From an uncultured delta proteobacterium (GTDB taxonomy: Bacteria > Desulfobacterota > Binatia > UBA9968), in assembly GCA_963771465.1 (NCBI GenBank), contig CAVYTU010000001.1, forward strand, positions 59,279 to 123,278: DNA of 64,000 nucleotides, in the 5' to 3' direction. The notes beneath the pieces were generated by a model, which saw only the letters and a program-made list of their open reading frames with translations, did not search any database and was not told where the DNA came from. Each line of letters begins with the position of its first letter. Within the stretch, counting starts at the first letter, position 1. A program made the translations under genes and the position numbers. This document shows, piece by piece, positions 11,157-59,415 of this stretch.

Positions 11157-11558
11157 CTAGAACCGCTCTTTTTCGTCTTCGCCGGTGTACGGGCCCTGCT
11201 TTATCTCTAGAAATACCGTGTCCTCGAGCATACGAAAACCGTGTCCTCCAGCGACCATCAGCATGATATCGCCCGAACGAAGCTCGCGAGTAGCAACCAG
11301 TTCCCGGCTGTCGTTGTAGATGTCGATCTCACAATGCCCGCGCTGGACAACCAAAACCTCCGCGGTGCCCACGAGGTGACGTTCAAGAGGCCGGTGATCA
11401 TGGCGCTGAATTACACCTCCAGCGGGATAAACGACAAATCCGACCTGCTGCTTAAAGTCAGGCGGAGTGACGAATGTGGTCTCGGCCGGCCTCGCCTCCG
11501 CTCGAATAATGTAAGCCAGCGGTTTTTCGTCACACACGATCTGCTCAAGGTGTTCCAT
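11157..11558 (-). CDS. Cupin-fold protein (WbuC-like), common in O-antigen loci
   Basis: HDH...EVLVVQRG...GGHGF...EIKQGPY. Confidence 0.8.
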   Translation of the reverse strand: MEHLEQIVCDEKPLAYIIRAEARPAETTFVTPPDFKQQVGFVVYPAGGVIQRHDHRPLERHLVGTAEVLVVQRGHCEIDIYNDSRELVATRELRSGDIMLMVAGGHGFRMLEDTVFLEIKQGPYTGEDEKERF

Positions 11559-11740
11559 AAAAATAACGATCTTTTCTGACTCCGAGAAGTCAAGGATTCA
11601 ATGCGTGTTTTCGGTGATCTGAATATCTAGGTGGTGACTCACTTGATTTCCAAGGTACTCGATCAGCTCTCGAATAAAACGAAAGTGTTACCTGCACGCA
11701 ACCTATACGCGGCCTAATCCGGGGATATGGGAATCAGCAA

Positions 11741-13738
11741 TCAATTGGTTGGCGTATTGATCTCCACTACCGGTCCCTTCTGCCCCTGGAGATTTAAAAC
11801 CCACCGGCTTGCCACCTGCACACGGCCGCCGTCGCGGCTGGCATGCAGGAGTTTGCCCTCCCATCGTCCGCTTTGAACGAGTTCGGATTCGATCTCTTGC
11901 AATGGTTTCGGAAATTGCGTCTGCAGAAGATCGTGGCTAACTTTGCCTAAGGCTTCCTCTTTCCTCCAGCCATAAAGCTCCTCGGCGCGGCGGTTCCAGG
12001 AGTTAATTGTACCCTCCATGGAGCGAACCATGATGCTTTCGTTTAGGGGTTCGAAAAGATCCTCATGCTCTTTTCCGATCACTTCCGGCTGCTCAACCAA
12101 TAGCTTTTCGCGAATAGTTGAGCGCGCGGATTTACCCGTGTTGCGGTTGACAATCCAATTGGGCGGTTTTAGGTAAACTGCACGTGGAGTCAGGCCTAGT
12201 TTTGCTACGATTGTATTACGCACCGCTCGCTCAATTTCGAGGGTGGATTTCAGGCCTTCATCGGTTTCCGCCTCAGCCACAACGATGACATCCTCCGTCG
12301 CGAACTCGGCATTATGCAAGCCAAACGCTACGGATCGCCCCGCAGAAACGGCAGGATGATTGCAAACGAGCTTCTCAATATCGTGGAGATTAATGTTCTT
12401 CCCTCCGGCAGCCATACCTCCAGAGCGAACACGATCCTTCGCTTCTTCCAGTATCTCGATCAGACGGTTACGAAAATCATCCGGAGTGTAAGAAGATAAT
12501 CGGCGGCAGCCCGCGTCCATCAAAGCACGTCGCAGATTCTGGTCAGTCCAGATTCGATAAATACCCTCAGCTATAGATTCCACCGATCGTGGATCCACCA
12601 ACACCGCGGCGTCGCCAACCTGTTCGCGAACACCGCGAATGTCCGAGGTCAGCACCGGGCATCGAAAAGCCCAGGCTTCCAACACCGGAATGTTTGTCGG
12701 GCCAAAAAAAGTCGGCATGACCAGCGCGATCGCTTCAGAATAGAGCGCCGACATGTCTTGTTCCGGAACATACCCGAGATCGTGTATCTGATTTTCTATT
12801 CCTAGGTTGGACCGGAGCGACATAACCGCATTGTAGGTATTCTCCCGTATGTCTCCGCTGTGAGATCCGCAAAAAACAATGGGAACATTTGTATGTTGTT
12901 CCCTTTTCAACAGGCTCAGCGCCTGCACAATACGCGCATGATTCTTGTGTGGCCAGAACTGCGCCGGATAGAACAGGTACCGCTCCGGCAAATGATAAGC
13001 TGTGCGAACTCTCTTTCGCTCGGTTTCCGATATCCCTGTGGCAAGGTACGTTGCAGACAAGTACGGTAGTATTTTAATTTTATCTTCGGTGACTCCATAC
13101 GGCCCATAAAAATTGAGAATGTCTTCCTTGCCCACTTCGGATTCGGCAATAATCAACGTCGCACAACGGCAGGCGTTGCGAAACATATACTCGCGATATT
13201 CCCACTCGCCGTTTGCCGAAACCTCGGGAAACTGCGGTTGAAGTCTATGTTGTAGGTCGTGAATCGATATCACGTAAGGCATTCCGGCCTCAAAACAGAT
13301 CGGCGTCGGGTAAGTATATAAAAGCAAGTCCAGTTTTGCCCGTAGGAAACAATCCCGCAGATCGCCTCGATACTTGATGACTTCCGGATCGGGAAGCGTC
13401 CGCGGCTCGGGTTTCGGACCGTTTCGCGAGTTAACTAATTGCCTTCGTAACCATCGCAAAGCTTCACGGTGCAGGCCTTCCCCGATCAGCCACCGTATTC
13501 CATCCGCGACACGTTGGCTCCATGGAAGTGGTGGGACTGTGATAATCGACTCCATTTCCCAACGGTCCCGCGTTAATGAGATCAAAGGCGTATCGCGCGT
13601 CGTATTATTTAAGAGCAGAACAAACTGATCGTTACAGCCGTTCTCTAACCAGGTATTTAATCCATGGACTATATTCTGGCTGTACTGGTACACACCACCG
13701 CCCTCAGGATTCCAACTCGGAAGAATTCCGATTCGCAT
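11741..13738 (-). CDS. GT4 glycosyltransferase fused to an acyl-AMP-ligase C-terminal subdomain and a terminal PAS domain
   Basis: GT4 part: IHDLQHR, FYPAQFWPHKNH, PTFFGPTNIPVLEAW. Then GGKNINLHDIE...GRSVAFG...VYLKPPNWIVNRNTGKSAR. Then PAS: INSWNRRAEELYGW...WEGKL...RDG...SRW. Confidence 0.88.
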   Translation of the reverse strand: MRIGILPSWNPEGGGVYQYSQNIVHGLNTWLENGCNDQFVLLLNNTTRDTPLISLTRDRWEMESIITVPPLPWSQRVADGIRWLIGEGLHREALRWLRRQLVNSRNGPKPEPRTLPDPEVIKYRGDLRDCFLRAKLDLLLYTYPTPICFEAGMPYVISIHDLQHRLQPQFPEVSANGEWEYREYMFRNACRCATLIIAESEVGKEDILNFYGPYGVTEDKIKILPYLSATYLATGISETERKRVRTAYHLPERYLFYPAQFWPHKNHARIVQALSLLKREQHTNVPIVFCGSHSGDIRENTYNAVMSLRSNLGIENQIHDLGYVPEQDMSALYSEAIALVMPTFFGPTNIPVLEAWAFRCPVLTSDIRGVREQVGDAAVLVDPRSVESIAEGIYRIWTDQNLRRALMDAGCRRLSSYTPDDFRNRLIEILEEAKDRVRSGGMAAGGKNINLHDIEKLVCNHPAVSAGRSVAFGLHNAEFATEDVIVVAEAETDEGLKSTLEIERAVRNTIVAKLGLTPRAVYLKPPNWIVNRNTGKSARSTIREKLLVEQPEVIGKEHEDLFEPLNESIMVRSMEGTINSWNRRAEELYGWRKEEALGKVSHDLLQTQFPKPLQEIESELVQSGRWEGKLLHASRDGGRVQVASRWVLNLQGQKGPVVEINTPTN

Positions 13739-14615
13739 GAGTCAACCTCTTCGATAGGTGCTTTATAAAACGTCTCTTTGCCGCGGTGATCAGCCCAAGG
13801 CCGAATGGCCACCAGATCACCGCCCGGATGGAGCAGCGACTCGCGTGTTTCTCTTCTTTAGCTTTGTGATAGAAAAACGCTGCCCGTTGGTAATGATGGG
13901 CCAGAACTTTCGGCCCTAAGTGCCGAAGGATCGACCAACGATGTTTTTGGATAATTTGCTCATAGCCCATCGCTTCTTTGCGTGAGTCTTTTGAAATGGT
14001 ATTTGCATGGCGACAATCGTATAGAAACGTTGGCTCGGGCACGAACTCAAAAGTAAAATGCCGAGCAAGTTTGATCGCGGCATCCCATTCTTGATATGCA
14101 ACGATGTTTTCATCGAGGTAGCCGAGACGGCCAAAAGCAGTCCGGGAAATGAAAAGTCCCTGGAACATTGGCCCAGGCCTCCGCAGGAGTTCGCGATAAA
14201 CATGGCCTTCTAACGGTGGCACACCGAAGAGTTCCATGTTTTCTTCTTTCAAGACATAGCATTCCGAGTGCACCACCTGAGACCCGTTTTCTGTCGCCTT
14301 GAACCTAACCTCCAGACTATGTGGAAGCCATCGGTCGTCAGAGTCCAGAAACGCAATCCAATCGCCGCGGGCAACACGAAGGGCTGTGTTACGAGCTGCC
14401 TGCGCGCCTTTTCGCTCGTTGTGCTCGATCAGGCATATTCGACTGTCCTTCTTCATCCACTCTCGAACGACTGAGCTTGTAGCATCGGTAGAACCATCAT
14501 TGACAATTAGAGCTTCCCAGTTCTGATACGTCTGGCTTACGAGACTTTCTAGCGCTTCGCGAATTATGAAGTCTCTATTAAAGGCGGGGACAACAACGCT
14601 AACTAACGGCGGCAT
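13704..14615 (-). CDS. GT2 glycosyltransferase
   Basis: VSVVVPAFNR, VNDGSTD, GAQAARN, IAFLDSDD. Confidence 0.92.
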   Translation of the reverse strand: MPPLVSVVVPAFNRDFIIREALESLVSQTYQNWEALIVNDGSTDATSSVVREWMKKDSRICLIEHNERKGAQAARNTALRVARGDWIAFLDSDDRWLPHSLEVRFKATENGSQVVHSECYVLKEENMELFGVPPLEGHVYRELLRRPGPMFQGLFISRTAFGRLGYLDENIVAYQEWDAAIKLARHFTFEFVPEPTFLYDCRHANTISKDSRKEAMGYEQIIQKHRWSILRHLGPKVLAHHYQRAAFFYHKAKEEKHASRCSIRAVIWWPFGLGLITAAKRRFIKHLSKRLTHANRNSSELES

Positions 14616-14757
14616 GGCTTTACCTGACAAGAATCCCAAATAGGATCCACTAAATTATGTTCTCCCTGCAGAGCGTCTACTAGCAGATCTCTGTTGATTA
14701 AGTGAGCTGGCCGCTCGCCGGATATCCAACGGTACGAGATTTAGAAATCAGAAAAGC

Positions 14758-16087
14758 TCATTGTACCGCGTGCTGAGTACGATCATGTGATGCTTGAACA
14801 CTTATTTCTCCGGCAACAAAAACAACGCCTTGTGTTTGAGATTCCGGAATCCGTCCCGACCGATATACGTCGGCCGGTTCCACATTAAGCACTAGCGCTC
14901 TTTCGACACGGTCAATCCAATCCCTTTGATCTTCCACCAAGCTCAATGTAATGAAATATCTTCCCGGTAATAGAGGCACGTTCGGAATATGGAGAGACGC
15001 AATGCCGCTATCCGCGGCTCTCAAAACATTTCTGTCGTTCGCGGCGATATAGTTATCCAATGTAAGAATTCGCCGATGATATTGATCTTCGAGTGCAAAA
15101 CCGAAGATGGGATTCCTGATCGCACGACTGCACTGAAACTGGTAGTATATTTTTACACTTTCTCCCATCATAATAGAGTTGTTTTTGACTCCGTTCCGGT
15201 CCAAAATCCAAGCCTTTCGCAAGGCTTTTTCCTGAGAGTGAGATCGTCTAGAGTACTGAGTTAGATCAATTTCTGGCCGCTCTCTATCCATACTATCTGT
15301 ATCCAAGCCAGCTTCGAGGTAACGTGAAGTAACCGTGCGCGTGTCGCCGTCTTGTTTAAGCCCCCCTTCTTGAATCCAGAGTATTCGCTGACAGAGTGCT
15401 TGGATTGCGGGCATACTGTGGCTAACGAACAATACGGTTCGCCCGCCTTTGGCGACATCGCCCATTTTTCCTAGGCATTTTCTTTGAAAGGCGGCATCGC
15501 CGACCGCTAGGACTTCGTCGACAATCAAAATTTCCGGCTCCAGATGTGCGGCAACGGCAAATGCCAGGCGAACGTACATCCCGCTCGAATAGCGTTTAAC
15601 CGGGGTATCAATAAACTTTTCGATCTCGGCGAACGCGACGATGTCGTCGAATTTCTTTACAATTTCTCCCTTCCTCATGCCTAAGATCGCGCCGTTGAGA
15701 TAGATGTTCTCGCGACCCGTAAGCTCGGCATGAAACCCGGTCCCCACTTCTAGAAGTGATCCAACCCGTCCGTAAATTTTCTGCTCTTCCCGTCGTGGGA
15801 TCCGTGATGCGCGAGAGGATCTTGAGAAGTGTGCTCTTTCCGGCACCGTTTCGACCGATAATTCCGACGACTTCTCCCTGCCCGATTTCGAACGAAACAT
15901 CTCTGAGCGCCCAGATGCTATCCGGCGACTCCGACCGCTCACCGGCCGCAAGATCGTGGCCATTGGAGCGAAAGAGGGACCGCAGGCCATCTGTAATCTG
16001 ATCGCGCAGTGTATCGTGCCGCTGTTTTACGAGACCGATCTTGTATTGCTTGGACAGATGTTCAACTCGAATTGCAGTATCGCTCAT
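14758..16087 (-). pseudogene. wzt: Wzt ABC ATPase with C-terminal carbohydrate-binding domain, split by a +1 frameshift (real or sequencing error)
   Basis: MSDTAIRVEHLSKQY...GRNGAGKST continues after an extra base in the T4 run at 15777-15780 as [16 protein letters not shown]...YSSGM...[10 protein letters not shown]. The span is 1330 nt = 3n+1. Confidence 0.85.
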
Positions 16088-16129
16088 TTTCGCCGTTAAA
16101 CCTCGGCTTAATTTCAAATGTGGCGTTAA

Positions 16130-16385
16130 GTTCCGTCGGCTCGGTAATGCGGAGAGCCATTTTAAGGAGCGCGCTCTTTTTCTTAGCAGTCTCGATTGGA
16201 GTGCCAAGAACGTCTCCTCTGTTGAATTCCAGGGAGGCATCTTTAGACATCCAATATCGTAGCCTGATAAACGCGAGTCCTGCTTGCTTAGTGTGGAGGT
16301 GTTGCCCTTGGGATGAAACCACCGACAACAGAATGTCCGGAAGTGATCGCGTAAGGCGTCGTGCACGGGTTGCGCATTCCTTCAC
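16130..16385 (-). pseudogene. Decayed copy of a wzt 5' end
   Basis: HDALRDHFRTF and YWMSKDASLEFNRGDVLGTPIETAKKKSALLKMALRITEPT align to Wzt [10 protein letters not shown] and [40 protein letters not shown]. Walker A is destroyed. Confidence 0.7.
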
Positions 16386-17245
16386 ACCACATCGGCGAAT
16401 GTACGCTCTGTATATTTAAAATATATAAACCCGGGAACCAGCAGGGCCAACACCATAAGAGCGCTTGTGAGAATCACTCCAAAATCAGGGCTCTCTCTCC
16501 CCAGCAGAGCCCACCGAAAACCTTCGATGACTCCTGCCATCGGATTCAGACTGTAGAGACCACGCCAATTTTCTGGAATCAGACTTACCGGATAGACGAT
16601 CGGCGAAGCGAACATCCACAACTGGATCACAAAGGGAACCGTGTGGCCGACATCCCGATATCTCACGTTGAGTGCTGAGAGCCAAAGCCCCACCGCCAGA
16701 GACGTGAATATGACAATTAACAAAAAGAGCGGCAGCGCAAGAATTCTCCAAGTGGGCATGGTGCCGAACCAGATCATCATAGTAACGAAAATGACAAGCG
16801 ATATGGCGAAATCGACCAGCGGCGATAAGATTCCGGAAATGGGGAGAAGAAGCCGCGGGAAGTATATTTTTGAAATAAGTTGTGCATTGCCGACTATGCT
16901 GTCACTGCCGCGTGTAAGCGAGCTGACGAAAAGGCTCCATGGCAGCAGCGCTGAGTACGCAAAGATAGGGTATGGCAGTCCGTCGGATGGAATTTTAGCA
17001 ACTCTGCCAAAAATAGCGGTGAAGAGAATCACAGTTAGCAGGGGCTGAAGCACGACCCAACCGATACCAATGAAGGTCTGGCGATATCGGACCTTCAAAT
17101 CGCGCCACACAAGAAAATAAAGCAATTCCCTGTATTCCCATAAGGCTTTTAGGTCCAGACGTAGGATAGTCTTCCGAGGCTCAATCACGATTGTCGGTTC
17201 GCGAAAGACAGGAAACGAGGATACTTCTGTCATTCTGCTAGACAC
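16382..17245 (-). CDS. wzm: ABC-2 type polysaccharide exporter permease
   Basis: LWEYRELLYFLVWRDLKVRYRQT, KIYFPR, NVRYRDV, SPIVYP, LNPMAGVIEGFR. Six TM segments. Confidence 0.95.
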   Translation of the reverse strand: MSSRMTEVSSFPVFREPTIVIEPRKTILRLDLKALWEYRELLYFLVWRDLKVRYRQTFIGIGWVVLQPLLTVILFTAIFGRVAKIPSDGLPYPIFAYSALLPWSLFVSSLTRGSDSIVGNAQLISKIYFPRLLLPISGILSPLVDFAISLVIFVTMMIWFGTMPTWRILALPLFLLIVIFTSLAVGLWLSALNVRYRDVGHTVPFVIQLWMFASPIVYPVSLIPENWRGLYSLNPMAGVIEGFRWALLGRESPDFGVILTSALMVLALLVPGFIYFKYTERTFADVV

Positions 17246-17483
17246 TCTATGTATTCTCCCTAAGTTTCGTTTGGTGTCGTTTCATCATGAGTGAGAATCC
17301 CAACTATCATCAATCGCTAGGTGTTTGCCCCAATTCAGGCCCGCATAACTGAATGTATTCCGAGGTGCTAGACGAATGAGTCTGCTGGCTCCGAGCACCG
17401 TTTCTCTATGCCTCCTGCGGCTCATGCGCGTCGGATGAAACGGTATCGTTTGTAGCCTTTACTCTGAGCAATAGCTGCGCAAG

Positions 17484-19046
17484 CTAGGTGCCGTTCGGAT
17501 CGGTAAATGCCGATGATGAGGGTTTTTTCATAGAAACGTCGGCCGGTTTTGGCCAAATGGATGATCTTACATGGGTACCGTTCGGAGAGGCTGTGGCGCG
17601 AAGCAGCTCTTTATACCAATCGAGATAAGTCTCCACCTCCAGGTGCAAGTCAAATCGCTCCCGAGCGTCTTTTGCCGCGTTTTGGCCGAGGCGCGCGCCC
17701 AATGAAGGGTCGGCAAGCAGCCGTCTGATGCCGATGGCCATAGCTTCAGGATCTCCCGGCGCGACTAGCAGCCCCGTCGCCTGATCCATAGGATAGGTAT
17801 TGAGGCGCGCGCCCTGGGAAACGGCACCGGCCAAATCCAGCCCTTTCACCTGCTCCGGGATCCCCCCGACAGCCGACCCGATCACAGGCGTGCCACAGGC
17901 AAGCGCTTCTAGCACTGTGTTAGGAAAGGTATCGACCTTGGCGCCGTGGAGATAGAGATCCGCCGCCTGATAATAGCGCGCCACCTCGGCGGGATCATTT
18001 TGATAAGGAACAAATCGCACTTCTCCTTGGCCGATTCGTTCTGCCGGTGCGCTCTCCCCGACTGCTAGGAAAATCAGCGGCCGCTCCGTCGCCCTCGCCG
18101 TGACTCGGGCAATCGCTTCTCGCATGGTCTGATAGTCCTTGAAAATATTTCTCCGGATGCCGTTAGCCGTGAACAATACGATGTCGGCGTCCTGAGGCAG
18201 CCCTAGTGTCGCCCGTGCTTTATCTTTGGGCGCGGCGCGAAACACGCTCAAGTTTATGCCGTAGGGGATGACCCTCGCTTGATCGATTGCTGGAGCAAGA
18301 ATCGATTGCTGCACTTTTTCCATCAACCAGCGGGACGGAGTCGCCACGTGAAACCGACTTTTTAAAAAAATTCCGCGCTTGCGGCGCCAGTTGCGAGCCG
18401 TAGCATCGCGGCTGATTGCCGGATAAATCGTCAGATCCGGACAGTTACCACAGCCGATTTTCCAACGTTCACACGCGAACGAATGAGCGCAGTGCCCACT
18501 TAGCAGCCAGGCGTCATGCAGCGTAAAAACCAGCGGTGCGCGGCGCGAGAGCCACGCCAGTGCGCGGAGATCAAAGTACCCGCCATGGAGATTGTGACAG
18601 TGAACGATGTCCGGTTCATGGGGTGGCAATTGAAGCAGCCGATGGGTGCCGGGATAGTTGAAGTTTTCCACACCGAGCCGCGCCTGCAGCTCACGTCGCG
18701 GATCCACCAGGGTCCGCAAGAGAGCTTGAACCCGGCTAACCGCAAGCTCTTTTATTCCGTAGGACTGCAACCGCTTCTCCACACAGAGCAAGATCCGGCC
18801 GCGGGAATTTTTATCATTCGGTCGTGGTATCGGGATGATGTTTGGGTCGTTGCTGCGTTTTTTGCCGACGGCCAGCCATGAATCATGTTCAAGCACCCGA
18901 TAGCTCCGGAAGAGATCCCAGGCCACTTTCTCTGCGCCGCCGCCGATATCGACGGTACTCACCTGAAGGATGCGTAACGGTGGCTCGCCTCGTATGGCGC
19001 GCGCACGACCACAGGCTAAATGTTCTTCTTCAGTGTTGGTTGGCAT
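17484..19046 (-). CDS. GT4 glycosyltransferase (WcaC-like)
   Basis: GGGAEKVA, HCHNLHG, TLHDAWLLSGHC, C..GCGNCP, DTFPNTVLEALACGTPV. Confidence 0.92.
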   Translation of the reverse strand: MPTNTEEEHLACGRARAIRGEPPLRILQVSTVDIGGGAEKVAWDLFRSYRVLEHDSWLAVGKKRSNDPNIIPIPRPNDKNSRGRILLCVEKRLQSYGIKELAVSRVQALLRTLVDPRRELQARLGVENFNYPGTHRLLQLPPHEPDIVHCHNLHGGYFDLRALAWLSRRAPLVFTLHDAWLLSGHCAHSFACERWKIGCGNCPDLTIYPAISRDATARNWRRKRGIFLKSRFHVATPSRWLMEKVQQSILAPAIDQARVIPYGINLSVFRAAPKDKARATLGLPQDADIVLFTANGIRRNIFKDYQTMREAIARVTARATERPLIFLAVGESAPAERIGQGEVRFVPYQNDPAEVARYYQAADLYLHGAKVDTFPNTVLEALACGTPVIGSAVGGIPEQVKGLDLAGAVSQGARLNTYPMDQATGLLVAPGDPEAMAIGIRRLLADPSLGARLGQNAAKDARERFDLHLEVETYLDWYKELLRATASPNGTHVRSSIWPKPADVSMKKPSSSAFTDPNGT

Positions 19047-19090
19047 TAAGAATCTATCCCGGCTGGCGCAGTCAAATAACGTTACTACAA

Positions 19091-20125
19091 TCAGATGGGT
19101 TGAGTAGTCGCCGAATGAGATTGGCTGAATTCGGCGGATGCAAAAGGCGTGAGGCTCCCCAGGCGCTCTCGCTCGTGTACGATGATGTTACTAAGCAGTT
19201 CGCGAAGATCCATCGATGGTTCATATCCAATGACGCTCTCAACTTTGGTTAAATCCGGCAAACGCCGCCGCATATCTTCGAAACCCTCCTCATAGGCTTG
19301 GTCGTAGGGAACAAATACGATCTCGGCGGAGCTATGGGTCATTTCCTTGACCATTTTTGCAAGCTCAAGGATCGATATTTCTTTCGTATGGCCGACGTTG
19401 AAAACTTCTCCGTAAGCTCTGGGGTGTTGAATCAGTTTGATCATGGCGCCGACAACATCGCCGACCCACGTAAAGGAGCGTTGCTGTTTTCCGTCACCAT
19501 AAACGGTGAGCGCTTTGTCGGAAAGAGCCTGGCGCACGAAACGCGGCACAACCATTCCGTACTGCCCGGTTTGCCGCGGGCCGATGGTGTTGAAAATCCG
19601 CAAGACGACAGTAGGTAATCCCTTTTCCTTGTAATAGGCCTTGGCGAGAAACTCGTCGATAATTTTTGACGCGGCATAACACCACCGCGACCGCGAAGTC
19701 GCTCCCAATATCAAGTCGTCTTCCTCGTTAAACTTTACGCGCTCCGACTTTCCGTACACTTCCGAAGTCGAAACGAGCAGCGCAGGCTTACGTTTGCGGG
19801 CGCAGAGTTCAAGGATCAGCTCAGTGGCCTTGATATTCGTTTCGATCGTCCTGACCGGCTGTTCGACGATTAGCCGCACGCCCACGGCGGCTGCGAGGTG
19901 GAACACGAGATCCGCGCGGTCCACCAATTCCATCAGCAGGGGGCGGTTCATGACGGTGTCGAGCGCGTATGAGAAATGCGGGTTTGCCTTGAGATGCGCT
20001 ATATTTTCGATGCCTCCAGTCGATAGATCGTCGATCACTTCCACGCGCCACCCCAATCGTAGAAGAGCGTCGGCGAGGTGTGATCCGATAAAACCCGCGC
20101 CTCCCGTAATAAGTGCTGTAGTCAT
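19091..20125 (-). CDS. NAD-dependent nucleotide-sugar epimerase/dehydratase
   Basis: TGGAGFIGSH, HLAAAVGV, STSEVYG, YAASK, FNTIGPRQ. AGGAGG SD before the ATG at 20125. Confidence 0.92.
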   Translation of the reverse strand: MTTALITGGAGFIGSHLADALLRLGWRVEVIDDLSTGGIENIAHLKANPHFSYALDTVMNRPLLMELVDRADLVFHLAAAVGVRLIVEQPVRTIETNIKATELILELCARKRKPALLVSTSEVYGKSERVKFNEEDDLILGATSRSRWCYAASKIIDEFLAKAYYKEKGLPTVVLRIFNTIGPRQTGQYGMVVPRFVRQALSDKALTVYGDGKQQRSFTWVGDVVGAMIKLIQHPRAYGEVFNVGHTKEISILELAKMVKEMTHSSAEIVFVPYDQAYEEGFEDMRRRLPDLTKVESVIGYEPSMDLRELLSNIIVHERERLGSLTPFASAEFSQSHSATTQPI

Positions 20126-20157
20126 TTGTTCCTCCTGATTGTTTGAATACTTCCTGG

Positions 20158-21201
20158 TTAGCCGCCCAGCCATGCGCCGAGGCGACGGCTAAATTCATCT
20201 CCGCCCCAATCCCGCACCAGGAAACGAGGTAGCTGAAAGCGATCGGTGGTCGGCTCGACAACTGCAGGAAAGTTCGCGCAAGCGCCGAGATAACCCGCAT
20301 GCGCGACGAACCCCGCTGTCTCCTCGGTATAATCCGACTTCGCACCGAATGGGTACGCAAAACTTCGGACTGGCCGGCCGAGGATTTCCTCTAGATTGCT
20401 TTTGCTCCGCTCTATTTCCACACGTTGAGCACGTGCTGGCAGATGGGAAAAAACCGGGTGGGTTACCGAATGCGAACCAACCTCGACCAGATCTCCTTCA
20501 GCAAGATCGATGACTTCCGCGGGCGAAAGTGCCGCGCGGTGGCTCAGCGGGACCGCTCCAGCACCTACCCATTTGGTCAACTCGTCCAATACATGACGTC
20601 GCTCAGCTTCATGTAAAGGGCGAAGCAGTCTGTGCAATTCGCGATACACTGACTGCCGCGGGCCGGGATCATGGCGCTCCGAGATATTCCAACGCCGCTC
20701 GCAAGCGCCTCGGCCACATGCGTTTGCCGATGGGCTCAAATTCCACTGATGAAGCTTTCCTGAAATATCCAAACTGAGGGTTGATGGTAAGGTGGCATAT
20801 TGAAGCAATACCTTCTCCAATTCATCCCACCAAAAATCTCGTTCGCCGCCGAGATAGCCCGTCGTGACAAAGACGGTTGCCGGTACATCATAACGTTCTA
20901 GTACCGGCTTGGCACTGATCAAGTTGTCCGCATAACCATCGTCAAAAGTCACGATCACGCCACGAGGAAGAGACTTTCCGTCGCGCACTGCGGTGATCAA
21001 ATCGAGAAGGCGAACGGGATAACCTTCTCTGCGCAGCACTTCAACTTGTTCGGCGAAATGGCGCGGCGTGACCGCAAGCAACTGCGGATCGGAAGCCAGA
21101 TCAGCCACGCGATGATACGCGAGAACAACCGGCCCGGGAAAAAAAAGATTGGTATACGGCTGCGCGAGCCGGCGCAATCTTCCGAGGCCCCGTATCGTCA
21201 T
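20158..21201 (-). CDS. Polysaccharide deacetylase (NodB/CE4)
   Basis: LAYHRV, VTFDDGY, VGSHSVTHP, FAYPFG, LPRF. Confidence 0.92.
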   Translation of the reverse strand: MTIRGLGRLRRLAQPYTNLFFPGPVVLAYHRVADLASDPQLLAVTPRHFAEQVEVLRREGYPVRLLDLITAVRDGKSLPRGVIVTFDDGYADNLISAKPVLERYDVPATVFVTTGYLGGERDFWWDELEKVLLQYATLPSTLSLDISGKLHQWNLSPSANACGRGACERRWNISERHDPGPRQSVYRELHRLLRPLHEAERRHVLDELTKWVGAGAVPLSHRAALSPAEVIDLAEGDLVEVGSHSVTHPVFSHLPARAQRVEIERSKSNLEEILGRPVRSFAYPFGAKSDYTEETAGFVAHAGYLGACANFPAVVEPTTDRFQLPRFLVRDWGGDEFSRRLGAWLGG

Positions 21202-21965
21202 AAACTGTCGACCTTCTTCACCGCTCTGACCGTAATCAACAACTCGTAATCAGGATCACGAAATTCAAGTTCGTCAGGGCGCAGCTCTTCCTGGGCTAAT
21301 CCGTGTAGAAACGCGTTTGCAGCGAGGACATTCCCATAGCTTTCAACGCTAACGTTCTCCGGCCCGAACACTTCTTCAAAAATCCTTCGCGCGGATGCTG
21401 TAGTAAACCGCCAGTAATCGCCCCATCGATCCATATCGTAACGACTGATTTGGCTGATACCCGGAACAGTCGCCAGGAGAACGCCGCCGGGCCCGAGAAT
21501 ACGGTGCAGCGACAAGATCGCGGCCTGAAAGTTGTAAATAAACTGCAAGGTCTGGGTAAAGATAATGCAGTCAAAACTGTCTGATGGAATAGAGTTCTCG
21601 CCGGCCAAATCGCCGACGAGCGTTGCTTTGGGATTTCCTTCCTGAACGTAAAGCACGTCCGATTTGATTACGCGATCGCGACCGAAACGAGTCGTGTAGG
21701 CATTATCTGCGACTTCGAGAACGCGGCCATGAATATCGCCTGCGTGCCGGCCGAGAAATTGTTCAATATAGTAGCGATCGATGCACAGGCCACGATCGAA
21801 TCCGAAGACCCGACTGACCGGCGTAACGCGTCGAAGATTTCCGAAACGGACCCAACCGATCAAGGGGGACAAGCACACAGCCCGCTGTTGCAATCGCAGC
21901 CATTGACGAATGGACGACGGCAATATTTGGCGAGCCAAATCTAGCGTTTGAGTGGTCGCGGTCAT
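21198..21965 (-). CDS. Class I SAM-dependent methyltransferase
   Basis: FGFDRG..IDRYYIE, GRVLEVAD, FDCIIFTQTLQFI, PGGVLLATVPG, DYWRFT. Confidence 0.88.
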   Translation of the reverse strand: MTATTQTLDLARQILPSSIRQWLRLQQRAVCLSPLIGWVRFGNLRRVTPVSRVFGFDRGLCIDRYYIEQFLGRHAGDIHGRVLEVADNAYTTRFGRDRVIKSDVLYVQEGNPKATLVGDLAGENSIPSDSFDCIIFTQTLQFIYNFQAAILSLHRILGPGGVLLATVPGISQISRYDMDRWGDYWRFTTASARRIFEEVFGPENVSVESYGNVLAANAFLHGLAQEELRPDELEFRDPDYELLITVRAVKKVDSL

Positions 21966-22003
21966 TGTGATTCAGACTGTCGCGCCGAACACGTTACAAG
22001 GAT

Positions 22004-23953
22004 TCAATGAACTTGCAACACCTGATACGGCCCGAAACGGCGTGCGAGACGAAACCGATTGTCGGCCGGAACGTCAACGTGTTGATGGGCGGCTTCATCT
22101 TTCGCAGTCGTGCTGGTTTGTACGATGCGGTATTCATCCTCAGATGAAACACCTTCCGCGCATTGATTCTTGTTGGTGATGTCATGTCGATGTTTGAACA
22201 GCAGATCAAAATCAGCTCCAACTTTATAGCGGGGGTCGATGCCGTGATAGGTAGCCATAAATCTGTAGATATAGGTCTGGTAACCGATCGCCACGTTCTG
22301 TTTACCGTATAATTTGATTTGGTCGGCTAAATAGTCGATGACCTGAATCTGCTCGCCCTTTCTTCCCGACCAGCCTTCAGTTAGCCATGCGCTAGCCCGC
22401 GCGAGCAGCAAGGAGTTGCCGGCGATCCCCATGATCACGAGAATGGAAACTATACGTGTGACAGTCGGGGAAAACCCCAGTTTGGACGGCAAATAAGTGA
22501 CGGCGGCGGCGAGGGTTATAACTTGCAGCGGCCACAACCACCAAAATCTTTCGAGACGCTCTAGCTCAGTCAATGCGAGCATAATCATCCACGGTACAAC
22601 GAGGCTGGTCACGAAAACTCCCATTCTCCACGGCCGCTGTGCGGCGCCTCCAACCAAAACCGCAACGAGTCGACCGAACCCACCGGCTATTGTCTGTTTA
22701 AGCATTACGAGTATAAAGCCCGCGAACAGAAATATCGCCTGCAGGATCCGTACGTTCATAAGCGTCGAAGCCTCCAACCTCTCGTCCATACTCAAAAAAC
22801 GCGCGACCGTGAGTTCATTCACCAATAGACCCAGGAGAAGCGCGGCGATACCAACATAATTAAGAATAACGGGCCAGGCGATCTTTCGGTTGGTCGACTC
22901 GAAGCTGAAATTGCTTAGGCTCTGAGCGAGCAAGAGGAAAAGTCCGATCACCATCAGTACGAGGAGCGCGGCGTCCACTCCGGAAAATTTTGCAGCATGA
23001 TGAAAATTAGCGATCAAAAGATGATTCATTATGAGACTGGCGCGGCCCCATAGTGGACTCAGTCCCTGGACGAAGTTGCGCCAAATACCGTCGTAACGGT
23101 TCGGCGGTGGTGGCGCGGTGAAAACCGCGGAGGCGGAACCGTTCTCCCAGCTTTTCGGCGCCAAGCCTGGATCACACCAAAATTCCTTGAAATTGCTCAA
23201 GCGCATTTGTTGACGATAGACTTGGGATTTAAGATCGGCGAAATCTCGGCTTGCTTCGAATCGCAGATAAGGGTACCAAACAGCTGCAGCAAGAACCGTG
23301 ATGAACGCTATGGGTGCCAACCGCACCGGAGGACGATAGAGAAACCAAACTACGGGAATAATGAATAAAGCCGGCGCCATCTCTAAAAACATGTACATCC
23401 CGACAGCCCAGATGAAAGCGGCGGCCGCTAGATACCATGGGTTCTTCCTTTCCACCCACTTTCCAATCCAGTAGCTCATCCACACGTAAAAAAAAGGGTG
23501 AGAGCGCACCCAGGAGCTTTGGGCAAATAACAAACCCAACTCCGACAAACCCCACAGCGTCACGGCCAAGTAGGCGCATGCGGTTCCGAAAAAGTCACGC
23601 GCAAGAAAGAAAATACCAAACAAAGTTCCGACATATAGCAAAGCGGACGCGGGGAACTCAAAAAGTCGAGGATCGCTGAAACTCACCGCACCTGGAATCA
23701 TCAACCAGGTGATTCCGGGCGGCGTGTAGGAGCCAAAGCTCGTCAAGGTGCCTTTGTGCGGAATCTCCCCTGCGTTTACGAACGCCTGGGCGTCATCCAT
23801 GTAAGGGATCAGATCGAAATTGAAGGTCCTTGTATTCCATCCCTGAAAAGCCAACAGCAAGCCGACCGCCGCGACGAGACCAATAAGAATTGTGGAACAA
23901 ACGATAGGCTTCGGCAGATTCATTCTCTCGGCTGCCATAACGGGTATTGTCAA
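22004..23953 (-). CDS. Multi-pass membrane protein, possible GT-C (ArnT/PMT-like) transferase
   Basis: Many TM helices. N-terminal periplasmic loop FNFDLIPYMDD...GSYTPPG, and a soluble C-terminal domain. Confidence 0.65.
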   Translation of the reverse strand: MTIPVMAAERMNLPKPIVCSTILIGLVAAVGLLLAFQGWNTRTFNFDLIPYMDDAQAFVNAGEIPHKGTLTSFGSYTPPGITWLMIPGAVSFSDPRLFEFPASALLYVGTLFGIFFLARDFFGTACAYLAVTLWGLSELGLLFAQSSWVRSHPFFYVWMSYWIGKWVERKNPWYLAAAAFIWAVGMYMFLEMAPALFIIPVVWFLYRPPVRLAPIAFITVLAAAVWYPYLRFEASRDFADLKSQVYRQQMRLSNFKEFWCDPGLAPKSWENGSASAVFTAPPPPNRYDGIWRNFVQGLSPLWGRASLIMNHLLIANFHHAAKFSGVDAALLVLMVIGLFLLLAQSLSNFSFESTNRKIAWPVILNYVGIAALLLGLLVNELTVARFLSMDERLEASTLMNVRILQAIFLFAGFILVMLKQTIAGGFGRLVAVLVGGAAQRPWRMGVFVTSLVVPWMIMLALTELERLERFWWLWPLQVITLAAAVTYLPSKLGFSPTVTRIVSILVIMGIAGNSLLLARASAWLTEGWSGRKGEQIQVIDYLADQIKLYGKQNVAIGYQTYIYRFMATYHGIDPRYKVGADFDLLFKHRHDITNKNQCAEGVSSEDEYRIVQTSTTAKDEAAHQHVDVPADNRFRLARRFGPYQVLQVH

Positions 23954-24124
23954 TCTCTCGAAGCTCGTCGCCGCATACTCATCGACACCGGTCCCTCTGC
24001 AGATTCCAGATGGGAATTTGTAGAATTGAGCCGGGATAGTGAAGGTAGGTCAATTAGGTGCTGCTCATCTTACACCGGCAGGCACCACGAACAGCGGCAT
24101 GTTCCTAAGCGCGTAGTGTCGGTC

Positions 24125-25114
24125 TTAATTCCTCAGGGTCGTAGCGCAAGCCGTCTTAATTCGATTGCTCAAATAGGTCGCGGCCTCAGTCAGGAGACTT
24201 CGGCTCACGGCGCTGTAATACGCCGGGATAAATGGCAGCGCGAAGGCTGCTTTAACCCATACGGGGAACGAAAGTCGCTGCCGATAAATGCCGCTCCAAC
24301 GTTCGTAATAACAACCCCAGTTCATTCGATCGATGGTATCTTTTACCTCCCGCCATTCGGCGGGGTGAGCGGCAGCAAATTGCTGAAGCTTTGGATCGGA
24401 ATTGACGAATTGCAATAATTCTCGGGTTGCCCGGGCTATATCGTCGATGCTGATAGACAATCCATGGCTTGCTTGATAGACCCGAAAGCGGAAGGTCGCG
24501 CGCGAACTCATGGCAACATGATTGTCTAAGCAAAGCTTCACCACCAGAGCATCATCATGGCTATGGCCTCTCCATAATTCCGGGTATCCGCCGCACGCCC
24601 TTAAGGCCTGAGTCCGGGAAAAAAACGACGCGAGTCCGGCAAATTTGTATTGAGAGGTTCGCCATAAGCTTTGGATAAATTCCGGACCGCTGACGATAGG
24701 CGGAAGATCGTCGCTTGAAGTTCTGATCGTCTTTCCGGACTCGTCCATGATTTCCTGTCTCGACAAAGCAACCGACGCGCTGGGATAACGGGCCAACAAG
24801 GCGGCCATTTCGGAGACGAAATTGGGGCTGATTTCATCATCATCGCACAAAATCATGAAATATTTTCCTGATGCCCGCTGTATAATCTGATTGAAATGGG
24901 TCGGCATGCTGACAATGGAAGGGCTTTGGCGAAATTTAAAAGGTTTCGAATAGTGTCGCCGAACCAGCTGCGGCACCTCGCCGCCGTTGAGCCCGTTATC
25001 CGACACTATCAGTTCGATCGCGGGATAGTTTTGTTCGCTGACGCTTCGAAGAACGTTCGGAAGAAATCCAAGTCGCTTGTAGACAGGAACACCGATAGTA
25101 ACTAAGTCGCTCAT
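24125..25114 (-). CDS. GT2 glycosyltransferase
   Basis: VTIGVPVYKR, IVSDNG, GKYFMILCDDD. Confidence 0.9.
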   Translation of the reverse strand: MSDLVTIGVPVYKRLGFLPNVLRSVSEQNYPAIELIVSDNGLNGGEVPQLVRRHYSKPFKFRQSPSIVSMPTHFNQIIQRASGKYFMILCDDDEISPNFVSEMAALLARYPSASVALSRQEIMDESGKTIRTSSDDLPPIVSGPEFIQSLWRTSQYKFAGLASFFSRTQALRACGGYPELWRGHSHDDALVVKLCLDNHVAMSSRATFRFRVYQASHGLSISIDDIARATRELLQFVNSDPKLQQFAAAHPAEWREVKDTIDRMNWGCYYERWSGIYRQRLSFPVWVKAAFALPFIPAYYSAVSRSLLTEAATYLSNRIKTACATTLRN

Positions 25115-25133
25115 AAAGGTTCAGCCACAGGAT

Positions 25134-26060
25134 TTAGCAGCCAGAGGGCGCTTCAGCGCCTGATTCTTCTCTGAGCTTGCCGCCTTCACGGTGGCGAGCC
25201 GGCTTTACCAACCCGTCAGCCGCCGAATACAACGGATGGTCGAAGAAATGGGCCAGATAAACCATGTCCACCCATTCTTGTTGATCGTATGGCTTGGGCA
25301 GAAAATACTTGAGGCCGTACATCGGCGAGATTTTTCTCATCGCGTGCGCCGCGTTAAACTCCCGGATGGCTAAACGCTCGCCCGTGAAATCCGAATAGAT
25401 ATGCCCCAAAATATCGTCGAAGTAACAGTAGATGCGCGGCAGAAGAATTTTTCTATCCGCCTCAAAAAGCTTAAATGCCTGCATCGTTGAACTGTAATAA
25501 TCGAGATCAAAAGAAATGAACCCGACCGGAGCGGGATTAGAAGCCAGAAATGCTGGGAGGGTATTTTCGACCGGACCCAGCACCAGCTCCGCCCTTGTAA
25601 GACGCTTTTTAAGCCGTCCCACGTCCATGGGAAATGCTCCTTCCACCCACAAACTGGGCAGGTCGCGATAATCGGTCGGCTTGGGCAATCCAATCCCGGT
25701 GTCGAAACCGTAGACACTGATACCAACGCCTAAAATCGCCTCGACCTTTTCGGCTATCTGATCGAGGGCAACCAAACCATTGCCTCCCGCCACGCCAAAC
25801 TCGATCACCGATACCCGTTTCATACCGAGCGCTTTGGCAAGATGCGCAGCTTGCAAAACGCCCCACGCGTAATTAGGTCTGAAACCTGATGTGCTTTCCT
25901 GATGGATTTGCGTGAGTAACGAATTCAACCAAGGATAAGCAAGATCGCTATCTTCAGTTATCTTGGGACTCACGACGACCGGTTCTTCCGCCCAATTTTT
26001 CAGCAACCGAATGCCTCCGAGTGTTTTTCTAAGCAGCCCCTTCGTCACCTTTTTTAACAT
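25134..26060 (-). CDS. TylF/MycF-like methyltransferase-fold protein
   Basis: IEFGVAGGNG, YGFDTG.GLP, FISFDLDYYSST, YFDD, GERLAIREFN. AGGAGG SD. Confidence 0.8.
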   Translation of the reverse strand: MLKKVTKGLLRKTLGGIRLLKNWAEEPVVVSPKITEDSDLAYPWLNSLLTQIHQESTSGFRPNYAWGVLQAAHLAKALGMKRVSVIEFGVAGGNGLVALDQIAEKVEAILGVGISVYGFDTGIGLPKPTDYRDLPSLWVEGAFPMDVGRLKKRLTRAELVLGPVENTLPAFLASNPAPVGFISFDLDYYSSTMQAFKLFEADRKILLPRIYCYFDDILGHIYSDFTGERLAIREFNAAHAMRKISPMYGLKYFLPKPYDQQEWVDMVYLAHFFDHPLYSAADGLVKPARHREGGKLREESGAEAPSGC

Positions 26061-26116
26061 GCATCTCCTCCTTCCTAGAAAATTTTTTCTGTCACGATTA
26101 CAGCTTATAGGATTTA

Positions 26117-27172
26117 TCACTCATTCAATGGCGTGTTGATCTCCACTACCTTTCCCGAATACGCCTTTGGATCATCCAAGACCCACCGACTTTCTACCAC
26201 GATCCGACTACCGTCGCGGGCGGCATGCACCAGCTTGCCTTCCCATTTTCCGTTTTGAAGGAGTATGGCATCGATCTTTTCCAACGGTTCGGGAAACTCC
26301 GTCCGGAGAAGGTTATGGCTTACCTTGCCTAGGGCCTCCTCTTTCCTCCAGCCATACAATCGCTCTGCGCCATAATTCCAGAAATTAATTTTACCATCTA
26401 TGGTGCGAGTCATGACGATGTCTTTACTGTCAGATTCTTCAGTTGACAAACGATTGATGATGAAGGCTTTGCCGTCCCAGCCAAATTCTTTGTACGGTGT
26501 TGCCTTCAGGCGCGGATTTCGTTCCAGCCATTCGTTGAAAGCTTTCTGTTCTCCCAATTCTTCACGGTTTGCAAAACAATACCAATCATCGAAAATGATT
26601 ATACTGCCATCTACAAGATAGGGTTCGACGAAGGTCAAAACCGGCACTGTTGACTCATAGACATCACAATCCACATTTACGATGGCCGCAGCCCGGAGAG
26701 CGAGTTTTTCTTCCGTTTCATGATTGAGTGTATCCGAGTACCAGCCGGGGATCAGCTCCACTCGGCTCATATCCACATCGGCGTGCACAAGGTTGTTACG
26801 CACCTCGAGCAAGCCGCCGGAAAAAATTCCCGGCGGAAACGCTTTTGCTTCACTCTTGTTCACATTGAGTGTAGGAATTCCTTGAAAAGAATCGAAGCCG
26901 TAGAACTTCATATCCGACAGCGATCCAAAGCGTTTGGAAAGATGATAGGCGGCAATCATGCTACCACCCATCCACATGCCAAATTCGAGATAGTCGCCTT
27001 TCACCTCGGCCCAATGCACGTATTCGAGACATGCACTGAGCATTGCCTCTTTTCGGTTATATTGCACCAGCTCCTGGATTTTAGGTAGGTACTTATGTCG
27101 CACCGCTGGCTTGTTTAAGTAGTTGATAATCGGTCGAGCGATAAATTTGAGAAGTCTAGACAAAATTTTCAT
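26117..27172 (-). CDS. TylF/MycF/NovP O-methyltransferase fused to a terminal PAS domain
   Basis: GDYLEFG, YGFDSFQG, GWYSDTL, VNVDCDVYES, IIFDDW, GEQKAFNEW. Then PAS: INFWNYGAERLYGW...WEGKL...RDG...SRW. Confidence 0.9.
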   Translation of the reverse strand: MKILSRLLKFIARPIINYLNKPAVRHKYLPKIQELVQYNRKEAMLSACLEYVHWAEVKGDYLEFGMWMGGSMIAAYHLSKRFGSLSDMKFYGFDSFQGIPTLNVNKSEAKAFPPGIFSGGLLEVRNNLVHADVDMSRVELIPGWYSDTLNHETEEKLALRAAAIVNVDCDVYESTVPVLTFVEPYLVDGSIIIFDDWYCFANREELGEQKAFNEWLERNPRLKATPYKEFGWDGKAFIINRLSTEESDSKDIVMTRTIDGKINFWNYGAERLYGWRKEEALGKVSHNLLRTEFPEPLEKIDAILLQNGKWEGKLVHAARDGSRIVVESRWVLDDPKAYSGKVVEINTPLNE

Positions 27173-31972: not shown

Positions 31973-32137
31973 CGAGTTCCTAAGTGAGAAAAACACCTAC
32001 ATTTCAGGGTCACCAGGTGGTTCATTCTTTCTTTAAGCAATCCTCATTCTTTGACCAGACCACCGTCTCCACGAACCGTTTTCAACTGAAAACACGCGTT
32101 TCTCGCTCGCCTCAAGTTTGCGTGCAAACGCCGGACA

Positions 32138-32956
32138 TCACATTCGAGAATTGCAAATCAGCGGATCTTCCTCGGTTGGTAGCTTAAGGATTATCGCCTG
32201 ACCGGTGGGTAGCGTTATGGGAGATTCCGGCTTATCCGCAAAATACTCGTCCACCGCGTCTTTTTCGCCGCGCGCCGCGGCGAAGGCGTATTCATCAAAC
32301 AACAAAACACCCCCCGGAACGAGCCGTGGGTAAAAGTAACTGCAGCAATCCAACGTCGACTGATAAACATCGACGTCCAAATGGGCGAAAGCGTAGCGGT
32401 GGTCCTCCAGGCCGCGAAAGGTCCCCGGAATCCAGCCACAGCGAACGTCGATTATATTTCTAAATTCGCTTAACAAACCTTCCACTTTTTCCAGCGATTC
32501 GGCGGCATACTGTCCTTCGAAGAACCACTGATCCTTTTCGCCGCTTAGTTTGGGCAATCCTTGAAAGCTGTCAAATAGATACAGCTTTTTCTGCGCCCCA
32601 TTGCCGAGTATTCGAGCAAGCAAAAGCGCGGTGCCGCCGTTCCATACTCCGCATTCGGCAAAGTCTCCCGCCAGATGACGCGCGTAACGCGCCAAGCTGA
32701 TCAATATGTAACAGCGGTCGGGTGAAACCAATGTGTAAGGCTCAGCACCTTCATAGACGGATTGAAATTCCGGGTGTCCCGACCAGGGACTGAAAAGCGG
32801 ACAAGGACCCACCCATTGAGAATAGTATTGTGACTCTTTAACCGTCATTGCCGCTTTGAAGTCCACGTCTAAAACGTTCGGTTGACTCAGAGCATGAATC
32901 TCATAGCCCAGCCGATGTAAAACCGCTTTGCAGCCGCGCTTTATATGCTGGATCAT
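32138..32956 (-). CDS. TylF/MycF O-methyltransferase
   Basis: GDFAECGVWNGG, LFDSFQGLP, GWIPGTF, AHLDVDVYQS, GGVLLFDEY. Confidence 0.92.
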   Translation of the reverse strand: MIQHIKRGCKAVLHRLGYEIHALSQPNVLDVDFKAAMTVKESQYYSQWVGPCPLFSPWSGHPEFQSVYEGAEPYTLVSPDRCYILISLARYARHLAGDFAECGVWNGGTALLLARILGNGAQKKLYLFDSFQGLPKLSGEKDQWFFEGQYAAESLEKVEGLLSEFRNIIDVRCGWIPGTFRGLEDHRYAFAHLDVDVYQSTLDCCSYFYPRLVPGGVLLFDEYAFAAARGEKDAVDEYFADKPESPITLPTGQAIILKLPTEEDPLICNSRM

Positions 32957-41993: not shown

Positions 41994-42029
41994 ACGATCA
42001 GGACACGATCCGATGCCGAATGCGCGCTT

Positions 42030-59250: not shown

Positions 59251-59415
59251 GCGGCAGATTTATAAAATTAAAATAGGGAGCAGTCGAATTGATTTGATCG
59301 GGAGGAGGTGTCTAAACAGTTATTCCAGCGAATTGGATCGACGATTTGGACTGATGTCAAGATTTACGGCAGCCCCATACACAAAAGCACCGTACCGAAA
59401 ACCCAATATCTATTT

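Follow-up and report, generated by a model that had tools for sequence, protein, structure and literature searches.

PAS domains without signalling output are shuffled among surface-polysaccharide enzymes and may act as portable tags

Introduction

Why should a glycosyltransferase and an O-methyltransferase, two unrelated enzymes of one surface-polysaccharide gene cluster, both end in a PAS domain with no output domain behind it? The question is raised by a 64,000-nucleotide stretch of DNA from an uncultured delta proteobacterium (Desulfobacterota; Binatia; UBA9968; GenBank assembly GCA_963771465.1, contig CAVYTU010000001.1, forward-strand positions 59,279 to 123,278), referred to here in its entirety as the window. 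PAS domains are usually treated as sensors wired to kinases, cyclases or regulators. An initial annotation suggested that a single PAS module had been grafted onto several glycan-building enzymes, either placing them under direct sensory control or pairing these two enzymes for capping of the chain. Here, we show that both domains belong to a clade of output-less, portable PAS domains that is under protein-level constraint and has been shuffled among polysaccharide enzymes. The lineage is promiscuous and apparently undescribed: no published account was found in the titles and abstract openings of the literature searched, which included few subscription papers and excluded the supplements and cluster data of PMC10468136.

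Two genuine fusion genes

A scan of open reading frames (ORFs) with Pfam places both genes in a surface-polysaccharide cluster that fills much of the window on the minus strand. The first (11741-13738, minus strand, 665 aa) begins with a predicted GT4 (GT-B) glycosyltransferase part (residues 1 to ~440; 12419..13738) matched by PF00534 (E 3e-26), PF13692 and PF13439; PAS-less GT4 homologues (378-471 aa) terminate near the same boundary. The C-terminal PAS (residues 561-665; 11741..12058; PF00989 at residues 563-647, E 1.1e-6) is not joined straight to the catalytic part. Between the two sits a remnant of about 110 residues (~443-553; 12080..12412) resembling the C-terminal subdomain of a fatty-acyl-AMP ligase, with a PRK07768 match at residues 445-544 (E 2e-10). 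The second gene (26117-27172, minus strand, 351 aa) combines a predicted TylF/MycF-family O-methyltransferase (residues 1-241; 26450..27172; PF05711, E 1.5e-21) with a C-terminal PAS (residues ~250-351; 26117..26425; PF00989 at residues 248-331, E 6.6e-7) that is without the N-terminal flanking-helix sequence present in most clade members.

That the two domains are related, as the initial annotation held, is borne out: a run of 15 identical residues, other short motifs and the terminal TP are present in both translations, and a 30/32 nt DNA match was reproduced exactly. The description "near-identical" overstates the resemblance, which amounts to 62% identity over 98 aa and 74% over 287 nt, with a synonymous divergence (dS) of 0.67.

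Both fusions were confirmed as genuine genes. The architecture of GT4, ligase tail and PAS recurs in 4 further protein clusters (73-95% identical), and that of TylF and PAS in 7 protein clusters. An independent contig, L118, carries TylF-PAS with the same neighbours and a PAS 98% identical to that of the window, and contigs from the rhizosphere run X4 span both junctions of the GT4 gene (12297-12630 and 11805-12227). Chance and an assembly artefact were both rejected on the strength of the recurring architectures and the junction-spanning contigs. In the RNA runs X13 and X16, for which DNA carry-over was uncontrolled, pieces fell on the GT4 gene, none of them bridging into the PAS by 31 nt. 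No promoter- or terminator-like sites were found at 11500-11800.

Only the two fusions carry a PAS among the 50 window proteins scanned with Pfam, and five other window GT4s are free of it. A six-frame profile search of the genome recovered just these two clade members, at 168-174 bits, followed by a kinase-type PAS at 84 bits.

One PAS lineage on at least ten host families

PAS domains were gathered from relatives within the family, 1.84 billion representatives, genome and metagenome contigs, and a 90% database, and 538 distinct domains passed a length and score filter. Their scores were nearly bimodal, following the presence of the DIT motif. In a FastTree phylogeny of the 312 domains left after redundancy reduction, 114 of 116 enzyme-type domains grouped with the low-scoring fragment L182 against 195 other PAS domains (SH 0.90), with an inner group of 110 domains (SH 0.99). 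Because the enzyme-type labels came from a profile built on members, this tree confirms rather than discovers the clade. A quick IQ-TREE analysis of 89 selected rows set off all 25 kinase-type rows by a branch with SH-aLRT 95. Two C-terminal, DIT-less PAS domains of P0012, an AlgX-like SGNH protein, fall outside the main clade and possibly represent a separate, perhaps convergent capture of a kinase-type PAS.

The clade is thus a monophyletic group repeatedly fused to diverse polysaccharide enzymes, as the idea of a grafted module had anticipated. Ten host families could be named (SGNH/AlgX, RfbG, Ugd, acyl-AMP ligase, SDR, GT2, GT4, TylF, pyruvyltransferase and TOD1/MUCI70), and P0147 is one additional, unclassified host. 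SGNH/AlgX-like membrane proteins make up 77 of the 134 host records (a total in which some loci are counted more than once), and about 30 records are short fragments without an identifiable partner. No kinase, cyclase or DNA-binding domain was detected in any clade host scanned. The PAS sits at either the N- or the C-terminus of SGNH, SDR and GT4 hosts, many hosts bear two or three copies in tandem, and the linkers of the TylF fusions vary from about 10 to 40 aa. The neighbourhoods listed for clade genes are polysaccharide loci, as confirmed for selected neighbours, with one less clear exception, a G004 gene beside housekeeping genes and a transposon. Position-independent attachment of this kind to unrelated proteins of one process is what a docking tag would display.

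Within the family, clade PAS domains occur in 16 of 90 genomes; 18 had matched at E 1e-36, and G080 and G026 were removed because their match was a kinase. Two different tagged enzymes are found in six of the 16 carriers (G000, G075, G106, G109, G110 and G112), a tandem pair within one gene in three and a single copy in seven, all of these counts being lower bounds, with many genomes fragmented. The 24 genomes examined from two further families in the order gave no match, and most record titles of relatives read Candidatus Binatia or unclassified delta-proteobacteria. Spread across phyla was rejected as an interpretation, given that L038 and L042, titled as other phyla, share proteins with the loci L206 and L207 of the family. 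An RfbG-PAS gene (704-2332) beside dnaK on L059, a 4.7-kb contig titled Chrysiogenales, is the sole candidate outside the family, possibly through transfer or mis-binning. None of the 30 pattern matches in the viral collection was a relative, and the ESM Atlas returned generic PAS clusters only.

A PAS fold without its output linker

The GT4 PAS was modelled with AlphaFold2 (pLDDT 89, 90-row alignment) as five strands plus helices in a canonical PAS arrangement; the predicted five-stranded antiparallel sheet, the flanking helices and the profile match place it in the PAS superfamily. Foldseek reported a probability of 1.0 with top structures that are all PAS (3LYX, 5IU1, 3BWL and NifL), and a sequence search of solved structures gave 4 distant PAS entries. 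What the clade has lost is the connection to an output. Across 155 kinase-type domains, the Asp, Ile and Thr of the DIT motif reach 97, 74 and 90% fixation; among 114 clade domains these positions vary, and both window proteins end 3-5 residues past the last PAS strand; the DIT motif and coiled coil leading from a sensory PAS into a kinase or cyclase were not found. A Glu that is 93% fixed in kinase-type domains is Lys or Arg in the clade. Three hydrophobic strand positions are tighter than in kinase-type domains (Met 84%, Val 96% and Ile 90% versus 29, 34 and 45%), and from strand alternation we infer that they face outward.

The residues likely to line the pocket were retained. H602 (in the E-alpha helix), H632, S644, W646, E659 and N661 (GT4 numbering) reach 98-100% fixation in the clade, against 84-93% in kinase-type relatives. 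There is no conserved Cys column of the LOV kind; a Ser (99%) following a G-K/R-V motif occupies what we take to be the position of the LOV Cys. The F-alpha helix is devoid of His, and it is there that the heme-ligating His of FixL/DosP-type domains presumably sits. The third cofactor determinant named in the available part of PMC10468136, beside the LOV Cys and the FixL-type heme His, is the F-alpha Trp of FAD-binding domains such as NifL, Aer and MmoS, and the corresponding long helix (model residues 61-71) has none. H602, 99% fixed, lies in a short helix at model residues 49-52 and may mark a metal site or one of the Aer2 type, whose heme His is in the E-alpha/E-eta helix.

SGNH acyltransferase domains face outward, as in DltD and AlgJ. 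Hydropathy assigns about three N-terminal membrane helices to the SGNH hosts, which the PAS precedes in L043, L123 and P0114; in P0072, L119 and L130, it follows the catalytic domain. If the helix count is right and the SGNH domains are outward, the same PAS probably occurs on both sides of the membrane, which speaks against a signal specific to the cytoplasm and against a single scaffold there.

These observations bear on whether the clade still senses. It could be that the ancestral pocket binds a small molecule or metal and so alters the oligomeric state, stability or activity of the host, which would place glycan synthesis and decoration under post-translational control. The fixed pocket residues are in keeping with this idea, and All4160 (PMC13555669) and PAS-phosphoglycerate kinase (PAS-PGK; PMC7729029) offer precedents as described in the available parts of those papers. 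We nevertheless consider it unlikely: the usual DIT/coiled-coil route is gone, the three cofactor residues above are missing from the corresponding helices, and coupling would be needed on ten unrelated folds, at either terminus, across variable linkers and probably on both membrane sides. The missing signalling linker and the attachment to unrelated folds at either end make the direct sensory control originally proposed less likely. A further idea, after the example of PdeA/CpdR, that the PAS is a protease-adaptor signal was not borne out in the available part of PMC11519897 and is at most a lead.

Modelling added little on how the domains pack. The full-length TylF-PAS model predicts a Rossmann-type domain well, followed by a low-confidence linker (pLDDT <50 at 245-262; pTM 0.63), and is uninformative on domain packing, with only 8 of 27 alignment rows covering the PAS. 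A predicted complex of the GT4 and TylF fusions scored 0.27 (mark 0.32; 90-row alignments for each) and counts neither way.

Selection acts on the protein

Nei-Gojobori comparison of 60 nucleotide domains, with 952 of 1770 pairs kept (dS 0.05-1.5), gave a median dN/dS (nonsynonymous over synonymous divergence) of 0.21 for the clade, and 0.5% of pairs exceeded 0.5. The two window copies compared with each other yield 0.41; against L118, the TylF PAS yields 0.14 and the TylF catalytic part 0.27. Neutral decay, which would have spoken against a real module, was rejected on these purifying values. In each of the 66 SGNH pairs compared, conservation is higher in the PAS than in its host, and across hosts about 20 PAS positions reach 98-100% fixation. 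Synonymous variation extends over the whole domain and gives no hint of a motif or element at the DNA level. A selfish coding element or mobile DNA was considered and set aside, since synonymous sites vary and the junctions carry variable remnants of donors.

Donors, capture and loss

The tail of the window GT4 has a traceable origin. Intact ligase-PAS genes exist in L038/P0116, L150 and L158, and in L038 and L150 the genes that come next encode an acyl-carrier-like protein and an MBOAT protein. Compared with the C-subdomain of the L150 ligase-PAS, the window remnant shows 62% identity; its junction with GT4 falls at the ligase hinge in an alignment with L150, P0116 and L158, and both trees join the window GT4 PAS to that of L150 as sisters (SH-aLRT 82). 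The tail, comprising ligase C-subdomain and PAS, is therefore likely to derive from a fatty-acyl-AMP-ligase-PAS gene. The possibility that the ligase is split, its N-domain being encoded at another place in the genome, was rejected, as the best matches are 24-27% identical. An orphan 36-codon piece far from the cluster (G000:C19:39505-39612), 83% identical to the acyl-carrier protein that follows the L150 gene, is possibly a relic of the donor block. Polysaccharide loci elsewhere harbour modules resembling DltABCD (L038 6279-11674, L150 6273-9021, L119 and L130) with a fatty-acyl-AMP ligase, carrier protein, MBOAT and SGNH protein, plus an FkbH-domain gene in L130, which suggests fatty-acylated glycans.

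The window TylF PAS groups instead with the C-terminal PAS of the SGNH proteins P0072, P0086, L130, L119 and P0079 (SH-aLRT 90). Because the nearest relatives differ, the window records two separate captures; the single clade and its many hosts agree with the grafted module first envisaged; one recent graft shared by these two genes is not supported. Direct duplication between them was rejected on the same trees and on dS. TylF itself appears to have captured a PAS more than once: proteins with 70-80% identical catalytic domains bear PAS subtypes only 58-64% identical to the window PAS, and TylF-PAS monophyly was marginally rejected (approximately unbiased, AU, test, p 0.039; 50 rows, with 19 enzyme and 20 kinase rows dropped for speed and the earlier trees known beforehand). 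C-terminal copies elsewhere keep graded ligase remnants, from the whole C-subdomain (window) through ~35 residues (P0119 and L121) to ~15 (L219 and P0147), and in G075 a remnant-bearing gene lies ~10 kb from an intact ligase-PAS. Between the window GT4 PAS and the PAS of SDR L140, dS is 0.34, and so low a value on unrelated hosts suggests recent exchange. On the sequence comparisons, loss of the domain is as evident as gain.

This history leaves little room for the dedicated pair proposed initially, in which docking of GT4 to TylF would couple elongation to methyl capping before Wzm/Wzt export. Both PAS domains come from one clade, and the genes flank a wzm/wzt exporter (14758..17245, minus strand; ABC2_membrane, ABC_tran and Wzt_C by Pfam) whose Wzt has Wzt_C. 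Their copies have different donors, however; no second genome or locus among those examined has both fusions, SGNH proteins and nucleotide-sugar enzymes carry the clade most often, and most close relatives of both enzymes are PAS-less. With 10 of the 16 carriers tagging one gene and the remnant as conserved as the PAS, we regard such a pair as very improbable.

Tag or passenger

Our tentative preference is for the clade as an optional, portable tag for self-association or localisation, which fits best because attachment is free in position, linkers vary, copies occur in tandem, the signalling linker is lost and capture has been repeated. A PAS lineage related to that of FixL-like kinases has shed its DIT/coiled-coil linker and turned into an appendage of ~100 residues, which recombination in the hypervariable surface-polysaccharide loci of the family moves among neighbouring genes, often with pieces of the donor. 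On the preferred reading, it would not signal allosterically into its hosts; a tagged enzyme would self-associate, or join other tagged proteins or partners where the polysaccharide is assembled, with the outward side of the PAS beta-sheet as the most likely contact surface and tandem copies raising avidity. A modest benefit would explain why the tag is gained and lost often. In the window genome, the GT4 and the O-methyltransferase would each oligomerise and possibly co-cluster, without forming an obligate pair.

Several observations weigh against a tag. In the five GT4 fusions, the ligase remnant is as well conserved as the PAS (69-91% versus 68-97% identity), and purifying selection alone is therefore no proof of function; the hinge and catalytic-loop motifs of the remnant do erode in these proteins, and the clade-invariant PAS residues stay. 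The PAS is missing from 116 of the 120 best GT4 matches and 113 of the 120 best TylF matches (carried by 4 and 7, respectively), tagged and PAS-less close relatives are interspersed, and P0275, which keeps the first ~20 residues of the tail before a stop, indicates secondary loss. Because 10 of the 16 carrier genomes, several of them fragmented, have only one tagged gene, heterotypic pairing cannot be the rule. Three SGNH queries turned up no PAS-tagged membrane anchor in the window genome. The fixed polar pocket residues (His, His, Ser, Trp, Glu and Asn) need not be kept by a pure docking tag, and the lower entropy of the clade is partly expected because it is younger than the kinase set.

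Several of these points would also suit a tolerated hitchhiker, in which the 300-bp PAS is a portable region of homology in constantly shuffled clusters, fused by read-through and recombination between neighbours, and a small, stable terminal domain does no harm while selection merely keeps it folded. This explanation, possible if on balance doubtful, fits nearly as well as the tag, given the dispensability, donor remnants and equally conserved passenger. Every named host is typical of the same variable loci, the C-terminal copies bear graded donor remnants, loss is frequent and tandem duplication repeated, recent exchange between unrelated hosts is suggested by the low dS, homologous SGNH proteins carry the PAS on either side of three predicted membrane helices, and other genes of these loci likewise show variable C-terminal tails. 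Against it stand the higher conservation of the PAS than of its SGNH hosts, which exchange could also cause, the near-invariant positions across hosts, the persistence of the GT4 fusion to 73-75% and of the TylF fusion to 82-85% divergence, the synonymous variation throughout, and the absence of a relative from the viral collection.

A polar linker with a short hydrophobic C-terminal tail was noticed on P0402, P0404, P0411, P0412 and P0418, and downstream of the PAS in P0431, L129, P0080, L059, L140 and P0149. By sequence, it resembles a second interchangeable appendage of these loci, perhaps a membrane tether.

The consequences differ with the reading. In any of them, one PAS lineage minus its output linker has spread over at least ten unrelated biosynthetic folds in a single process, and automatic labels such as "PAS domain S-box protein" conceal enzymes within it. 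A tag would reveal an unrecognised way of organising polysaccharide enzymes and a compact, portable dimerisation part; a sensor would be a fold-independent regulator of glycan synthesis; and even a passenger would give a clean example of domain shuffling that can be dated, complete with donor remnants, repeated capture and secondary loss. A bolder version, which we think somewhat unlikely, holds that a sensory PAS was domesticated into a transferable address tag drawing enzymes into a self-assembling cluster that makes or decorates surface glycans, possibly gated by a ligand of the conserved pocket. Transfer of the tag would then re-route a pathway with its catalytic domains unchanged, adding surface-glycan variation in a soil lineage.

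Surroundings of the fusions

Elsewhere in the cluster, a second TylF (32138..32956, minus strand) matches only TylF and Methyltransf_24 in Pfam and is PAS-less. The wzt between the fusions (14758-16366) is broken by a frameshift near 15780, just past the Walker A region, either an assembly indel or the mark of a pseudogene; a second wzm/wzt pair at 40722-42920 is intact. Three long ORFs (25134-26120, 22004-23953 and 29527-30462) have no Pfam or NCBIfam matches; the second resembles a multi-pass membrane protein, and the first is kept beside TylF-PAS in L118. A DUF4910 gene (30668-31996) recurs near PAS-tagged genes in L040, L119, L123, L130 and L156, where it was recognised by sequence. The minus-strand cluster is broken by a plus-strand gene pair at 48974-53808 with CHB_HEX_C/Fn3 repeats, DUF6298, LamG and beta-helix matches in Pfam.

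Comparison with known systems

The nearest sequence relatives of the clade, about 45-58% identical, are PAS domains of FixL-like histidine kinases (for example, DUF4118-PAS-HisKA-HATPase; L008, L214 and P0184-P0263). The fold is shared with these and with the structural neighbours 3LYX, 5IU1 and NifL 2GJ3, and most core and putative pocket residues are held in common with the kinase domains. Unlike them, clade members form a separate branch, are without the DIT/coiled-coil segment and any kinase, cyclase or regulator output, and are often C-terminal, on biosynthetic enzymes.

Modules of the DltABCD/AlgIJ type, which comprise a ligase, carrier protein, MBOAT and SGNH protein for acyl transfer, share their layout with the likely donor of the GT4 tail. 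Here, in contrast, the ligase or SGNH member carries a PAS, and the window retains only the ligase C-subdomain and PAS, on a GT4. Cohesin-dockerin pairs and the docking domains of polyketide synthases and non-ribosomal peptide synthetases (PKS/NRPS) are also small, flexibly linked terminal modules that recur on unrelated enzymes of a single process; these systems have complementary partners, and most of their members are tagged. The clade differs in fold, in relying on one domain type, in tagging one or two genes per locus and in having no scaffold that we found.

Two systems place a signalling-type domain directly on an enzyme. Kinetoplastid PAS-PGK, in the available part of PMC7729029, likewise has a PAS on a metabolic enzyme without signalling output, and that PAS is reported to mediate an effect of pH on activity; it is one stable N-terminal fusion on one enzyme. 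The clade, unlike PAS-PGK, occurs N- or C-terminally on at least ten unrelated enzymes, with repeated gain and loss. Closer in process is the STAS-fused glycosyltransferase All4160 of Anabaena, a polysaccharide enzyme that, according to the part of PMC13555669 available, is governed by a phosphorylation switch with a known kinase and phosphatase within one enzyme family. The clade, unlike All4160, has no phospho-acceptor and no cognate regulator, and it is distributed over many hosts.

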